Positions 44,969 through 51,762 of a DNA stretch of 64,000 nucleotides are shown one piece after another. This DNA is from Mustelus asterias (taxonomy: Eukaryota). Numbering within the stretch: position 1 is the stretch's first letter; the number at the start of each line of letters is the position of its first letter. A program made the position numbers and the translations under genes. The notes under the pieces are model-generated. The model was given only the letters and a program-made list of their open reading frames with translations, had not been told where the DNA came from and ran no database searches. Where the stretch lies: assembly GCF_964213995.1 (NCBI RefSeq), contig NC_135807.1:87730001-87794000 (forward strand), read 5' to 3'.

Positions 44969-46476
44969 TAGACTGGAGGTCACTGCATCGACTCAACAAC
45001 AGCAGCCTGTATTTGGGAGGGCCCAGGGCATTAGCCCAGCGAGGGGCGGGTGGCCTGCCACACCGGAGCATGACGAGCAAACCTGTACAGGGTTGTTTGC
45101 AGCCTCCCGGAGGAGGTGAGGAGTACCTTGTTCAAAGGGACTCAGCACCTGCTTAAGAATGGGGAGGATTGCTGAGAGCAGCCCCCCTCCCCACCCCGCA
45201 TCCCTTACTAATGACCACACTCCCCTGATCCCCCCCAAATCATGACCTCCATCTGACGTGGGGGCCTGTGATCCAGTGACAGTCGTAGGCCTCGGTTGGG
45301 TGTCATACTGGCAGGTGGTGTGGTGGAATTTGATTTTGGTTCCTATTCCATGCCGGTTACTGTCACCACTCGAGACTGTCACATTTATTTGCAAAGGTCA
45401 ATTACTTTATTTCCACCAACTATCAGTGCAGGCTTAGTGGGCCGAAGGGCCTGTTCCTGTGCTGTATTGTTCCTTGAGGCAGAGAATGCCAACTCACAGC
45501 CTATTGCAGAGCAACACAAGCTGCTTTTTCCGGAAATGTAGGGCTTTCAGCCCATTAGAAATGAAGTACTTGCCCCAGATGCCTTACCTCCCGGCGAACG
45601 ATAGATACAGTTGAATGCCTTTGTCATAGGTGTTTCTCCAACTTGCTTGAAGTGGTAATTTTGGTCACAGCTTAAATACAAAATTGGCTGTTTGTTTAAG
45701 GTCCATTAAGTGCAAGAGAAGACATAACAGCATGCCGGGCGTCTTCTGGCACCGAGCCACCTTACCGTTAGTGATACTTTATTCAGCATTCGGTCTGGCT
45801 GTCTGTACTGCAAAGCTGTTACAAAACCAAGATTAAATAACATGGGCTGTGTCTCTTAAAATTAAGGACTTTCCATGTTTTTCAACAATTACAATTTTAA
45901 TGAGATGAACAAACACGTGCTTAAGAGAGAAAAAAATGGGACTTGCCGGCTGCAAGATGCAGAGATAGATGATACATTTGGAAGGGAGCCAGGAACAACT
46001 GAAGAAATATTTCATTCAAGTGTGAGGTGTGGATGGAACATAAAAATCTTGTTTTTTCTCGGCTGATCGCATAATCACATAGAACAGCAGGGGTATAAGG
46101 CACAGGGAGGTCGATGGAAAGGGAAATCAGACAGGAACTAAAGTTAAAAGTTAAAGTTAATTTATTAGTCACAGGTAAGGCTTACATTAACACTGCAATC
46201 AAGTTACTGAGAAATTCCCCTGCTTGCCACACTCCGGCGCCTGTTCGGGTCAATGCACCCAACCAGCATGTCTTTCGGACTGTGGGAGGAAACCGGAGCA
46301 CCCGGAGGAAACCTGCGCAGACACAGGGAGAACATGCAGCCTCCACACAGACAGTGAACGAAACCGAGAATCGAACCCAGGTCCCTGGTAAATCTCACTA
46401 GCTGTCCTGTCTGGAGACAATACACATCTCTTTAACCTGTGCTTAATGCTCCCTCCACTCACATTGTCTGTACCTT

Positions 46477-46770
46477 TGTGGTGAACCATCGTTGGTTCAC
46501 CACTGGGGATGTTATTGTATTACTGTTGGGCTAGGGTGTTGTTGTTATGGGGGTTGTACTATGTTGTTGGGATAGGGTGTTTACCTGTCCTGGGTGTTAT
46601 CATGGCACACTCCAGTGGGGTCCCGCCTCCGGTGGCAGGGTATAAGACCCCCTGCTCCGGCAGGACCCCTTCAGTCTGAACGGGTGAATTTGTGTTAGTA
46701 GTTTCATTGTTAATGTATTAAAGCCTTCAGTTCTAAAGCCTTGTTTCCGGGTGCTCATTGAGGTGCATCA
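46477..46770 (+). repeat. 5' LTR of the Gypsy element
   Basis: Direct repeat of 50903-51196; TATAAG at 46641, Inr-like TCAGT at 46671, ATTAAA at 46717-46722. Confidence 0.95.
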
Positions 46771-46792
46771 ATTTAATACATTAACTGAGAAT

Positions 46793-49700
46793 ATGGAACA
46801 GATCCTAAAACCGGATCGTCTGACACTGGACCCACGTGCGGTCGGTGCAGCTAACACGTTCGAACATTGGTGGAAGTGCTTCGAGGACTACCTGGCAGCC
46901 TCGGTAGCTATCACTACAGACAGTGATAGACTCCAGGTCCTCCACGCAAGGGTAAGCGACACGATTTACCTAGCCATTCGTGCAGCTTCCACTTACCAGG
47001 GTGCCGTCGAGCTCCTAAAGAATAGGTACATTACGCCACCCAACGAGATTCACGCTCGTTATCTCCTCGCTACACGACGTCGGCAGTCGGGCGAGACCAT
47101 AGAAGACTACGCCAATGAACTCCTGCAGCTTGCCAGGGGTTGTGACTGTAAGGATGTCTCCGCCGAGCAGTACATGCAAGACCTCGCCCGAGACGCGTTC
47201 GTAGCAGGGGTAGGGTCCTCGTACATCAGACTTAAATTATTAGAAAAGGGGAAACTCAACTTGACCCAGGCAATGGGGATGGCCGTGAGGTTGGAGGCGG
47301 CGTCGAAGAGCTTGGCGCTGTACCCCGAGGACCACGTGCAGTCAACGTGGTTGGAGCAAGCTCTGCTCCCTCCTCGCCCCGCGAACCCGCGCTCCCAGAT
47401 CGATTCGACGACGGCGGCAGCTCCAGGTGGCCAGCGATGCTATTTTTGCGGTGGGGCCAAGCATCCACGGCAACAGTGTCCGGCAAGAACGGCAATCTGC
47501 AGCCAGTGCGGTAAAAAAGGCCACTACGGCAAAGTCTGCAGGTCCAAACCTAAAAACGGCAGTGCAGCTTGTAACCCTCCAGAACGGAGACCATCTCTTT
47601 CGGCGCTGCAGTACCCACGAGGTCCGACCACGTGCGATCTCAGGACGGCGCCATCGTGGCAGACAGAGGAGGAGGAAGACCACCAGGAGTCGCTGCGCTT
47701 GGAGCCCTCGGCCACATGCGATTCATGGGGGCGGCCATCATGGTCCACGACGACTAGGAGCGACCAGCAGGGGTCCTCAGCATCCACATCGGCAGCATGC
47801 AGCAGCGACCAGCAGGGGTCCTCAGCATCCACATCGGCAGCATGCAGTGACGCCCAGGGGCCAACGGTGGCGTCGATCTCTCTGGATCAGACCAGGCATT
47901 ACAGACTGGAACATTCTATGATGGAGGTAAAGGTTAGTGGCAGAACTGTAAATTGTCTGTTTGACAGTGGGAGCACCGAAAGTTTCATACACCCTGAAAC
48001 TGCTAAAAGGTGTGGACTCCGGGTTCTCCCTGCCAAACAGACAATTTCCATGGCATCACAGTCCCGGTCTGTACCGATCCAAGGACAATGTATGGTAACT
48101 CTTGAGGTACAGGGCACAGTTTACGAGCAATACAGGCTCCTTGTGCTACCTCACCTTTGCGCGCCAATTCTCCTCGGACTAAACTTTATGGCCCACATGA
48201 GGAGTGTGATCCTACAGTACGGTGGGCCACTCCCTTCACTGGCAGTAGGGAACCAGCCGCAGCCTCCAAATTGCCCAAAGCGCCCCGCGTGCAATCTATC
48301 CACCCTGAAGATCACGACACCATCCCTTTTTAAAAATCTGGTACCTGGCTGCAAGCCCATCGCTACTAAAAGTAGGCGTTACAGCGCTGAGGACCGGATC
48401 TTTATTAGATCTGAGGTTCAGCGGCTCCTCAAGGAAGGGATCATACAGGCCAGTGCTAGTCCGTGGAGAGCGCAGGTCGTGGTAGTCAAAAGCGGGAACA
48501 AACCTCGGATGGTCATCGACTATAGTCAGACCATTAATAGATACACGCAGCTGGATGCGTATCCTCTCCCGCGCATTTCTGATATGGTCAATCAGATTGC
48601 GCAGTACCGAGTGTTTTCTACCATAGACCTTACGTCCGCCTACCATCAACTCCCCATCCGCCCAGAGGACCGACAATATACGGCTTTTGAGGCGGATGGT
48701 CGTCTATACCAATTCCTCAGGGTTCCATTTGGTGTCACCAATGGGGTCTCGGTCTTCCAGCGTGCTATGGACCGAATGGTGGACCAGAACGGGTTGCGGG
48801 CTACCTTCCCGTACCTGGATAACGTCACCATCTGCGGCCATGACCAGCAGGACCACGACACGAATCTCCAACACTTTCTACGCACTGCATCTCGCCTGAA
48901 TCTGACCTATAACAGGGAGAAGTGCGTATTCCGTACGCATAGGTTAGCCATCCTCGGATACGTGGTGGAAAACGGGGTCATTGGCCCTGATCCAGACCGT
49001 ATGCGCCCACTCACTGAACTTCCCTTGCCCGCTAGCACGAAAGCACTGAGGAGATGCCTCGGGTTCTTTTCGTATTATGCACAGTGGGTCCCCAACTACG
49101 CGGACAAAGCTCGTCCGCTCATTAAGTCCACGACCTTCCCACTTACGCCGGAGGCCCAATTGGCCTTCAAGGTTTTGAAGAGCGACATCTCGAAAGCCAC
49201 GATGCACGCGGTGGATGAATCCATCCCTTTCCAGGTGGAGAGTGATGCATCGGACTTCGCCCTAGCCGCCACACTAAACCAGGCAGGCAGGCCCGTCGCG
49301 TTTTTTTCCCGCACCCTTCAAGGCCCAGAGATTCGGCACTCAGCGGTGGAAAAGGAGGCTCAGGCCATTGTGGAGGCAGTCAGACACTGGCGCCATTACC
49401 TGGCAGGTAAGCGGTTCACCCTGATCACGGATCAACGATCCGTGGCGTTTATGTTCAGTAACACGCAGAGGGGCAAGATCAAGAACGATAAGATCTTGCG
49501 GTGGAGAATTGAGCTCTCCACCTATAATTACGATATTATGTATCGTCCAGGGAAGCTCAATGAGCCCTCGGATGCCCTCTCGCGCGGAACATGCGCCATC
49601 ATGCAGGAGGACCGCTTGAAGGCTCTCCACAATGATCTGTGTCATCCTGGAGTCACCAGACTCTACCACTTCATAAAAGCCCGCAACCTACCCTACTCGG

Positions 49701-50830
49701 TGGAGGAGGTCAGGTCAGTTACTAGAAGTTGTCGGATTTGCGCAGAATGCAAACCACACTTTTATCGACCAGACCGGGCACATTTGGTCAAGGCCACTCG
49801 CCCTTTTGAGAGGCTGAGTGTAGATTTTAAGGGCCCCCTTCCCTCAACGGATCGGAATGTCTATTTTCTTAACATAATAGACGAATTTTCCCGGTTTCCG
49901 TTTGTTTTCCCCTGTGCGGACACGTCGACTGCCACCGTCATCAAGGCATTCAGTGAGCTTTTTACCCTGTTCGGGTACCCCTGCTATATTCATAGCGACA
50001 GGGGCTCGTCGTTCATGAGCAACGACTTGAGGCAATTCCTGCTCTCATTCGGGATTGCCTCTAGTAGAACCACGAGCTACAACCCTAGGGGTAACGGACA
50101 GGTGGAAAGGGAGAATGCTACAGTCTGGAAGGCTGTCCTACTGGCACTGAAATCCAAGGGCCTTCCAGTCTCCCGGTGGCAGGAGGTCCTTCCAACTGCG
50201 CTCCATTCTATCCGCTCCCTCCTGTGTACGGCAACCAATGCTACTCCCCACGAGAGGATGTTCTCATTCCCTCGGAAGTCGTCCTCGGGGACCTCATTGC
50301 CAGCCTGGTTGACGTACCCAGGACCCGTCCTTCTGCGGCGCCATGTGAGGGCTCGCAAGTCCGACCCCTTGGTCAAACCGGTCCAACTCCTCCACGCCAA
50401 CCCTCAGTATGCCTATGTGGCATATCCTGACGGGCGAGAGGACACTGTCTCCATTAGAGACCTGGCGCCCGCAGGGGACGTAGCAACTCCTGTCGCTCCT
50501 ATTCCCCCAGTCACAGATCCACTACTCCTCATTACTTCCCCAGACGTGGCGCGGTCAGCACCGGGACCAGTGCATAACACTTTTACTCCCATGTACAGCT
50601 TGCCTGAGACTCGGAGATCGGCGCCACCATCATCACCACCACCACCACCACCAAACGTTCCAGGATCCCCTACACCATCGCCTCATCAGGGCCGGCCGGC
50701 CCGGGAGTCTTTGAGGGGACAGCCAGATGTTGTTTTGAGAGAGCCACCGCAAGCACCTGCTCCGGTTTCGCAACCGGTGTTGAGAAGATCGCAGCGTCGG
50801 TGTGGTCCTCCAGACCGTCTGGACTTGTGA
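46793..50830 (+). CDS. Gag-Pol polyprotein (1345 aa from the first ATG): Gag with tandem zinc knuckles, aspartic protease, RT, RNase H, integrase
   Basis: CYFCGGAKHPRQQC and CSQCGKKGHYGKVC knuckles; LFDSGS protease; RT motifs IDLTSAYHQ, PFGV and YLDN; RNase H SDAS/EKEA/TDQ/DALSR; integrase HHCC plus D-D-E (SVDFKG, HSDRG, VEREN). Domain order PR-RT-RH-IN is Gypsy. Confidence 0.96.
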   Translation: MEQILKPDRLTLDPRAVGAANTFEHWWKCFEDYLAASVAITTDSDRLQVLHARVSDTIYLAIRAASTYQGAVELLKNRYITPPNEIHARYLLATRRRQSGETIEDYANELLQLARGCDCKDVSAEQYMQDLARDAFVAGVGSSYIRLKLLEKGKLNLTQAMGMAVRLEAASKSLALYPEDHVQSTWLEQALLPPRPANPRSQIDSTTAAAPGGQRCYFCGGAKHPRQQCPARTAICSQCGKKGHYGKVCRSKPKNGSAACNPPERRPSLSALQYPRGPTTCDLRTAPSWQTEEEEDHQESLRLEPSATCDSWGRPSWSTTTRSDQQGSSASTSAACSSDQQGSSASTSAACSDAQGPTVASISLDQTRHYRLEHSMMEVKVSGRTVNCLFDSGSTESFIHPETAKRCGLRVLPAKQTISMASQSRSVPIQGQCMVTLEVQGTVYEQYRLLVLPHLCAPILLGLNFMAHMRSVILQYGGPLPSLAVGNQPQPPNCPKRPACNLSTLKITTPSLFKNLVPGCKPIATKSRRYSAEDRIFIRSEVQRLLKEGIIQASASPWRAQVVVVKSGNKPRMVIDYSQTINRYTQLDAYPLPRISDMVNQIAQYRVFSTIDLTSAYHQLPIRPEDRQYTAFEADGRLYQFLRVPFGVTNGVSVFQRAMDRMVDQNGLRATFPYLDNVTICGHDQQDHDTNLQHFLRTASRLNLTYNREKCVFRTHRLAILGYVVENGVIGPDPDRMRPLTELPLPASTKALRRCLGFFSYYAQWVPNYADKARPLIKSTTFPLTPEAQLAFKVLKSDISKATMHAVDESIPFQVESDASDFALAATLNQAGRPVAFFSRTLQGPEIRHSAVEKEAQAIVEAVRHWRHYLAGKRFTLITDQRSVAFMFSNTQRGKIKNDKILRWRIELSTYNYDIMYRPGKLNEPSDALSRGTCAIMQEDRLKALHNDLCHPGVTRLYHFIKARNLPYSVEEVRSVTRSCRICAECKPHFYRPDRAHLVKATRPFERLSVDFKGPLPSTDRNVYFLNIIDEFSRFPFVFPCADTSTATVIKAFSELFTLFGYPCYIHSDRGSSFMSNDLRQFLLSFGIASSRTTSYNPRGNGQVERENATVWKAVLLALKSKGLPVSRWQEVLPTALHSIRSLLCTATNATPHERMFSFPRKSSSGTSLPAWLTYPGPVLLRRHVRARKSDPLVKPVQLLHANPQYAYVAYPDGREDTVSIRDLAPAGDVATPVAPIPPVTDPLLLITSPDVARSAPGPVHNTFTPMYSLPETRRSAPPSSPPPPPPNVPGSPTPSPHQGRPARESLRGQPDVVLREPPQAPAPVSQPVLRRSQRRCGPPDRLDL

Positions 50831-50902
50831 ATCCTGTTATTTTTTTTGTCATTGTCTGTTTTCATCCACCCCGCCACCTTTGGTTCCTAAAGGAGGGGTG
50901 AA

Positions 50903-51196
50903 TGTGGTGAACCATCGTTGGTTCACCACTGGGGTTGTTATTGTATTACTGTTGGGCTAGGGTGTTGTTGTTATGGGGGTTGTACTATGTTGTTGGGATA
51001 GGGTGTTTACCTGTCCTGGGTGTTATCATGGCACACTCCAGTGGGGTCCCGCCTCCGGTGGCAGGGTATAAGACCCCCTGCTCCGGCAGGACCCCTTCAG
51101 TCTGAACGGGTGAATTTGTGTTAGTAGTTTCATTGTTAATGTATTAAAGCCTTCAGTTCTAAAGCCTTGTTTCCGGGTGCTCATTGAGGTGCATCA
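50903..51196 (+). repeat. 3' LTR of the Gypsy element
   Basis: 293/294 identical to the 5' LTR by eye; preceded by a polypurine tract. Confidence 0.95.
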
Positions 51197-51297
51197 ACCT
51201 TTAAGACTTGATTAGCTGTAAAGACTCACATTCCAATCATTATTCATGTAAATTGAGTTTGTGTCTTTGTGCCCTGCTTGTAATCAGAACTCCCAGT

Positions 51298-51334
51298 CAC
51301 CTGACGAAGGGACAGCCTGTTCCGAAAGCTTGTG
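51298..51334 (+). ncRNA. Minimal hammerhead ribozyme motif in the split PLE terminal repeat
   Basis: CAC-CTGACGA-AGGGACAGCCTGTTCC-GAAA-GC-TT-GTG. Confidence 0.7.
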
Positions 51335-51762
51335 GCTTTTGCTGCCAAATAAACCTGTTGGACTTTATAACCTGGTGTTGTGAGACTTCTTGCTGTGAGG
51401 CAACAGTGCTAACCACTGTGCCACCGTGCTATAACAATAACCAATCTGACACCACCTGATGATGCGCCTGTGAAACACCTTGTGATGTTTTACTATATTA
51501 AAGGCACTGTATAACTGAAAGATGCTGTTGTTTTCATTGCCTGGTTTGCATTTCTGCATTTCTACTGAAGCTGAATTTTTATCCCCAATAAATCTTAGCC
51601 AGCAGCCCAGCAAAATTAAAAGTTCAAGTCAAAATTCCACTCGTGCTCTTCATCTGCCCTGCCAGTCCCACTTCGTACTTGATTTTAAAAAGTAGCGATC
51701 CAACACTTTTCCTCCCCTGATTCCTTGTTAGGGTACACAGCACAGTCATCAGTTGCCATCCA

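Follow-up and report, generated by a model that had tools for sequence, protein, structure and literature searches.

The Gypsy retrotransposon at 46477-51196 of the window (the whole stretch of Mustelus asterias DNA that was analysed, 64,000 nucleotides in length) carries, at the position of its primer-binding site (PBS), a 14-nt exact complement of its own long terminal repeat (LTR). This LTR-PBS complementarity is real, is found throughout the clade to which the element belongs and covaries strongly. It is very likely that these elements prime reverse transcription by themselves in some form, and we hold with good confidence that the primer would be the 5' copy of the LTR segment, cut at the segment end.

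Structure of the element

The element is intact, contains a single open reading frame (ORF) and is free of a chromodomain. Its features, with coordinates in the window, are listed below.

46472-46476, no strand: left target-site duplication (TSD) ACCTT, from the sequence
46477-46770, plus strand: 5' LTR, 294 bp, TG...CA, 293/294 identical to the 3' LTR
46641-46646, plus strand: TATA-like box TATAAG, predicted promoter, from the motif
46671-46676, plus strand: Inr-like TCAGTC, predicted +1 at the A at 46673, from the motif
46709-46722, plus strand: predicted self-primer segment with the hexamer ATTAAA (46717-46722) at its end
46723-46727, plus strand: conserved RCC(T) motif, which would form the 5' arm of a second stem
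46760-46764, plus strand: GAGGT, 3' arm of the predicted second stem
46772-46785, plus strand: PBS position, 14 nt that complement the LTR segment exactly, 1 base past the LTR end
46793-50830, plus strand: single gag-pol ORF, 1345 aa from the ATG, no internal stop
50889-50898, plus strand: polypurine tract AAAGGAGGGG, 4 nt 5' of the 3' LTR; similar tracts in relatives
50903-51196, plus strand: 3' LTR, 294 bp, with the second segment copy at 51135-51148
51197-51201, no strand: right TSD ACCTT, from the sequence

The TG...CA LTRs, the TSD, the polypurine tract and the order protease, reverse transcriptase (RT), RNase H and integrase are those of Ty3/Gypsy elements. In the gag-pol ORF these domains are preceded by a Gag with Cys/His knuckles, the RT carries the motif YLDN, and there is no env. 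Amongst solved structures, Ty3 was the nearest to the RT of the element. The double Cys/His knuckle presumably recalls the Gag of the Mag lineage. Pfam searches for a chromodomain (E up to 0.1) found none in the whole ORF or in its last 242 aa, nor in any of five relatives.

The preliminary description of this DNA had called the element young and intact, and both terms hold: the two LTRs differ at a single position (46509, confirmed by a repeat search and in the sequence), the TSD is present and the ORF is not interrupted by a stop. The family is also young, as all 40 copies scored (from 1864 candidates in the host genome) were ~100% identical and the flanking 5-mers of 30 copies included 29 different ones.

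Three further observations concern the structure of the element and its surroundings. The LTR starts with a 26-nt near-perfect palindrome, 92% self-complementary (46478-46503 and 50904-50929), that could form a hairpin at the U3 end. A 45-nt in-frame tandem duplication is located at 47756-47845, within the Ser/Thr-rich linker between gag and protease. The element is inserted in a very high-copy repeat (46300-46476 and 51197-51420; contig depth up to millions), which is probably a SINE or LINE tail of the host.

Complementarity between the LTR and the PBS position

The 14-mer TTTAATACATTAAC (46772-46785) is the exact reverse complement of GTTAATGTATTAAA, which occurs at 46709-46722 and again at 51135-51148. 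The spacer between the LTR end and the 14-mer is a single A (46771), and TGG is absent. The sequence and the repeat search thus bore out the observation with which the preliminary description began, a 14-nt complement of the element's own LTR in place of a TGG-starting site. A PBS with an initial TGG and a match to a tRNA 3' end, the mark of tRNA-primed Gypsy elements, was not found in this element. The right end of an LTR is set by the position of the primer in retroelements generally.

The complementarity is not a product of chance, since at least 11 pairs at CA+1 (one base past the LTR end) were reached in 1 of 680 block-shuffled upstream regions, and the pairing probability predicted for the helix was 0.95-1.0 in four transcript contexts.

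Conservation and covariation in related elements

Relatives were collected from the host genome and from metagenome and MAG contigs, giving 138 loci. Ninety-nine of these had a gag start and at least 90 upstream bases, and they were grouped into 34 clusters (<80% gag identity). Perfect pairing from CA+1 over 11-19 bases was observed in 30 of the 34 gag clusters, comprising 7/7 from the host genome and 23/27 from metagenome contigs; counted per locus, at least 11 pairs at CA+1 were present in 75 of 99. The remaining four clusters, inspected by eye, contain degenerate forms with the same geometry, two of them clear and two doubtful. The result was the same where LTR ends were fixed independently by TSDs, which was achieved for 25 of 108 loci: 12-19 perfect pairs from CA+1 were found in 21 of these 25 elements.

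The paired sequences themselves are specific to each family. Amongst 30 representatives there were 29 different 11-mers, each matching its own LTR, and comparisons of PBS and segment across families gave a perfect match in just 2 of 870 cases. The preliminary description had named, as evidence against its reading, relatives that keep the sequence at the PBS position and lose the complementarity; across the 30 of 34 clusters and their 29 different 11-mers, it is the complementarity to the own LTR that is retained and not the sequence.

Compensatory covariation between the PBS position and the LTR segment, the check proposed earlier, was also found. In 10 host-genome sequences, hand-picked to span families, pairing is present in 138 of 140 cells, and both sides have changed in 9 of the 14 pairs, a number reached by none of 500 shuffles; slid controls for the same sequences gave 36-47% pairing. 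The representatives in the per-column pair table were chosen for perfect pairing, and this table was not counted as evidence.

These observations also bear on whether a host tRNA fragment or another small RNA acts as the primer, with the match to the LTR being incidental, which we regard as scarcely credible. Priming by half-tRNAs is known for some Copia elements, as described in PMC6317226 and PMC10886601, and our tRNA set (63 scored candidates, 30 loci, 36 sequences) spans only 5 amino acids. Nevertheless, one tRNA cannot match 29 different 11-mers in 30 families, each of which fits its own LTR with the 2 cross matches in 870 given above, and the element lacks the TGG. A match of the 14-mer to a host tRNA had likewise been named as evidence against self-priming; within this incomplete set of 36 sequences, the best match has 5 mismatches. 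Searches of the LTR against Rfam found no ribozyme or tRNA and no family near the threshold, the sole hit being a chance miRNA match with an E value of 2.5, far below the cut-off.

The control was a Gypsy family from this genome that is only distantly related (29-30% RT identity); a TGG-starting site is present in 13 of the 20 loci retrieved, and its self-pairing does not exceed 7 bases. In a quick tree of 38 rows, built with no named references and leaving out five clusters that had no long RT match, the signature was found on all branches of the group, the control family excepted. Two loci, L107 and L131, form a sister pair with 99% support in this tree; they have kept 12-13 bp of LTR-PBS pairing, but their segment ends in AAT/TT and not in AAA/RCC (the slash marks the segment end). 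Another abundant Gypsy family of the host (L228-L244) has LTRs of ~700-850 bp, ORFs that reach 1996 codons and, behind a T run, a primer site starting with TGG.

Amongst single-element proteins, those of rays and sharks are the closest (75-82% over RT-integrase), followed by those of a sea anemone, a nematode and many further assemblies (60-69%). A first look at the host genome gave 16,930 gag candidates, and no relatives were found amongst viral contigs. Eight contigs filed in bacterial MAGs (L140-L147) carry these animal-type retrotransposons, which points to contamination of the assemblies with host DNA.

Subfamilies A and B

The junction pattern of the element has 558 matches in the genome. 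Amongst the first 30, which were examined, 26 have 14/14 pairs, three have one mismatch and one is not an element. Four of these 30 belong to a subfamily B that is ~98% identical to subfamily A in gag, and whose LTR segment is GTTATCTGATTAAA, with the exact complement at the B PBS. The B PBS with the expected leader was found in 45 copies, and the B segment was present in 29 of 30 examined; the one that lacks it is L331, described below.

Fixed differences between the subfamilies were scored in 6 A copies and 5 basal B copies. The segment and the PBS are each changed at 4 of 14 positions, all in a complementary manner, and no position is changed amongst the 49 between segment and PBS or the 7 of the leader. 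Elsewhere, 5/36 positions differ in R before the segment, 5/196 in U3 and 54/4038 in the ORF. An economical explanation of this compensation would be that plus-strand synthesis copies the primer into the PBS, although selection on a hairpin could give the same outcome. In Tf1, a copied PBS is described as often forming the end of the cDNA (PMC11042837). Five copies that combine a B segment and a B PBS with an A leader were considered as mosaics that would prove copying from primer to PBS. This was rejected, and they are read as a basal B lineage because A-type letters are dispersed over internal sites and B is itself variable at the two U5 sites.

Transcript start and position of the primer

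Amongst 51 host-genome copies, 35 have a TATA box 31-34 nt before an Inr-like A, and a variable spacer brings the distance from this A to the segment end to 48-64 nt. Counted by representative, the TATA-Inr pair is present in 5/7 host-genome families and in 0/23 others. Judged from these motifs, +1 is predicted at 46673, hence the segment would occupy +37 to +50 and the start would lie 36 nt upstream of it. The earlier proposal of a primer inside the transcript agrees with the TATA-Inr spacing conserved in these 35 copies, and the primer is probably internal rather than 5'-terminal.

If the packaged RNA instead started at or near 46709 and the TATA-Inr pair were not used, the segment would be the extreme 5' end of the RNA and the element would be a plain Tf1-type one. 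For Tf1 and Tj1, the primer is indeed described at the mRNA 5' end (PMC7175516, PMC4600332), the 23 non-host families have no TATA-Inr pair, and both the covariation data and the crossover in the recombinant copy described below would fit equally well. This arrangement is nevertheless unlikely, given that host families keep TATA and Inr at a conserved distance from each other and within a limited range of the segment end, and that this element has no TATA ~30 nt before the segment.

The predicted cut and a natural recombinant

The end of the segment is conserved. It reads AAA in 28 of the 30 representatives and is followed by G or A, C, C and T in 28, 26, 28 and 25 of them, respectively. A second stem of at least four pairs can be formed in 23 of 30 families, compared with 32% in shuffles, and is missing in the other 7. 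A downstream GGY accompanies 22 of 25 RCC loops (12.4 expected), and the fourth pair of the stem is T-A in 14 cases, T-G in 4, G-C in 1 and A-T in 1. The leader-U5 duplex of a Tf1-style pretzel was not found, the mean longest pairing in 24 families being 5.6 compared with 5.5 in shuffled sequences; the structure that Tf1 needs for cutting is thus unmatched here.

One copy, L331 (G000:C12:33580380-33585250), combines the two subfamilies; its LTRs are identical, its frame is open and it is flanked by a TSD. The first A-type part comprises U3, R and the segment, with the last A site at 46716; B-type letters stand at 46733, 46761, the PBS, the leader and most gag sites up to 47593, and the copy is A-type again from 47603 on. 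The crossovers therefore fall at 46716-46733 and 47593-47603 in window coordinates; both LTRs carry the same switch from A to B, and the segment and PBS mismatch at 4 of 14 positions. Searches in both directions found no A/B-mismatched copy other than L331, nor a second copy of it. In an exact-pattern search, no LTR was found that switches type between U3 and R, at the predicted start.

The pattern in this single copy would be that of a first-generation recombinant in which strong-stop DNA was made from B RNA and ended at 46717-46732. A crossover within the 16 bases that bracket 46722 is as expected with a cut of the RNA at this position, although early strand transfer on uncut RNA could, by our estimate, fall within these bases in roughly 1 of 4 cases.

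The recombinant also bears on the source of the primer, for which the preliminary description had named both an internal 5' segment and the RNA 3' end. In the second case, the R copy at 51135-51148, exposed by trimming of the RNA behind the hexamer, would pair with the PBS, either in cis or in trans. Such a primer would be in keeping with the identity of the 3' and 5' copies and with the poly(A) hexamer that closes the segment in 22 of 30 families. However, strong-stop DNA started in this way would reach the cap, so that a recombinant would obtain R and the segment from its U5 donor; in L331 they come from the other parent, and no LTR was found crossing over at the start site. Additionally, structure prediction places the near 5' copy on the PBS. 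Priming from the 3' copy is thus very unlikely, and this single natural recombinant speaks for the 5' copy, rather than the RNA 3' end, of the two sources named earlier.

A primer made by splicing was considered as a feature of the clade and rejected. Acceptor-like motifs are present in 7 of 30 families (2.1 expected), and 5 of these 7 are the pyrimidine run before the Inr. Four loci (L134, L139, L147 and L124) carry a pyrimidine tract and YAG 20-40 nt before the segment, L124 also an upstream GTAAG, and these may have an intron inside the LTR.

The poly(A) signal

The two ATTAAA copies of the segment are the sole canonical poly(A) hexamers on the plus strand of the element, and the one at 51143-51148 in the 3' LTR is likely the working signal. 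The 5' ATTAAA is predicted to be fully paired, whereas the 3' copy is predicted to be 42-78% unpaired. Across the clade, the segment overlaps AATAAA or ATTAAA in 22 of 30 families, and in the other 8 the duplex contains no canonical hexamer; in one, L120, a compensated change abolishes it. These families and the compensated loss in L120 suggest that masking of the 5' poly(A) signal is likely a frequent side benefit and not the reason for the duplex. The masking proposed in the preliminary description thus remains plausible in this element but does not extend to every family of the clade.

It could also be argued that the duplex only masks the 5' poly(A) signal or regulates translation, and that a protein or another RNA primes. 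The predicted difference in pairing between the two ATTAAA copies and the overlap with a canonical hexamer in most families are in keeping with masking, and the position of the ATG, 7 nt behind the PBS in this element, with a PBS end no more than 13 nt from the ATG in 19 of 30 families, is in keeping with a role in translation. We consider this quite improbable, as the duplex is kept in the 8 families without a canonical hexamer. Moreover, masking has no need of an arm that starts exactly one base past the LTR end, as in the 21 of 25 TSD-defined elements, and an arm in that position leaves no other primer site.

Proposed mechanism

On balance, we favour a mechanism in which pairing of the 5' segment with the PBS goes together with a cut of the RNA at AAA/GCC, probably by RNase H, and the paired end serves as primer. 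The enzyme that cuts just behind the paired segment would probably be the element's own RNase H, and the cut would leave a paired 3' end for the reverse transcriptase. With a transcript start near 46673, the primer would be an RNA of ~50 nt of which only the last 14 bases are paired, and the cut at 46722/46723 would fall at the junction of the primer helix and the second, RCC:GGY, stem. The RT would then copy 46771 back to 46723, giving a strong-stop DNA of 48-49 nt that could jump to the 3' end via the 10-30 bases that separate ATTAAA from the poly(A) site. During plus-strand synthesis, the primer would be copied back into the PBS, which would keep segment and PBS in step. Concealment of the 5' poly(A) signal in the duplex would be a side effect.

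A broader proposal is more tentative, and we would give it somewhat less than an even chance. It holds that a large and widespread animal Gypsy clade outside the chromoviruses invented self-priming independently, with an internal segment that carries the poly(A) signal; that one and the same duplex hides the 5' poly(A) signal, marks the AAA/RCC cut by which a capped 50-nt primer is released, and owes its perfect pairing to the copying of the primer into the PBS in every round; and that recombinants map the cut.

Comparison with known self-priming elements

In Tf1, the transcript's first 11 bases are the primer and are freed by RNase H cleavage at the end of the duplex, as described in PMC7175516. 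Tf1 needs a three-duplex pretzel, in which both sequences adjoining the PBS also pair with the LTR, and the Tf1/sushi elements are chromoviruses (PMC10085805, PMC4600332). Like Tf1 and Tf2 of S. pombe, Tj1 of S. japonicus and the Tf1/sushi group, the shark element is a Ty3/Gypsy element without a tRNA site. It also shares with that group a PBS that directly follows the LTR and is complementary to an upstream LTR segment, with a sequence specific to each family, and additional pairing beside the primer helix. Unlike the Tf1/sushi elements, it has no chromodomain, and its segment is predicted to lie 36 nt inside the transcript and not in the first 11 bases. The segment in the present clade, unlike that of Tf1, ends at a conserved AAA/RCC and usually holds a poly(A) hexamer; a local RCC:GGY hairpin makes up the second stem instead of a three-duplex pretzel, CA is followed by a one-base spacer, and the duplexes are 11-19 bp long. 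The element would thus work like Tf1, yet it is not filed in the Tf1/sushi group, because neither the chromodomain nor the pretzel was found.

A survey of plant elements assigns self-priming to Tf1/sushi, Tcn1 and the TAR lineage of Copia (PMC6317226). As in the present case, self-priming in the Tcn1 clade and in the TAR elements of plants (Houba, Osr-1) is predicted there from LTR-PBS complementarity, and TAR is a lineage in which it has arisen outside the chromoviruses (PMC6317226). The hosts of these elements are plants, unlike that of the shark element, and Tcn1 is a chromovirus and TAR a Copia lineage. The Conserved Hairpin Site of the fungal GalEa Copia elements is similar in that there is no tRNA PBS and a self-pairing element stands at the PBS position; it is described as a conserved palindrome that pairs downstream of the LTR (PMC5445492). 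In the shark element, by contrast, the pairing partner is within the LTR, and there is no conservation of sequence.

In having short LTRs and a single ORF of ~1200 aa, relatives of this element presumably resemble Cigr-1 of Ciona. Some Gypsy entries in Repbase carry the label self-primed, and the clade may already be catalogued there. The Cigr-1 clade is also described in molluscs (PMC6238403), and the part of that paper available to us makes no mention of its priming. The searched supplements of PMC6238403 and PMC8556966, picture PDFs excepted, contained no alignments or reference sequences of named clades, and the available text of PMC2774666 mentions neither 'Cigr' nor 'primer'. Within the literature covered, which included the available parts of PMC3601003, PMC6238403, PMC13524379, PMC10886601 and PMC5443660 and lay outside Repbase and most subscription papers, no account was found of self-priming in a non-chromovirus animal Gypsy clade.

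Implications

Self-priming is proven for Tf1, and the literature found assigns it to chromovirus kin and to one plant Copia lineage. The conserved AAA/RCC junction provides an exact predicted cut site. Annotation based on tRNAs would score elements of this kind as 'no PBS', and we infer that such elements would offer no target to silencing by 3' tRNA fragments. If the present reading is true, a separate and abundant animal clade would represent a further origin of self-priming with a different architecture, in which an internal primer is tied to the poly(A) signal. This bears on the question, raised in PMC3601003, of whether tRNA priming or hairpin priming came first.
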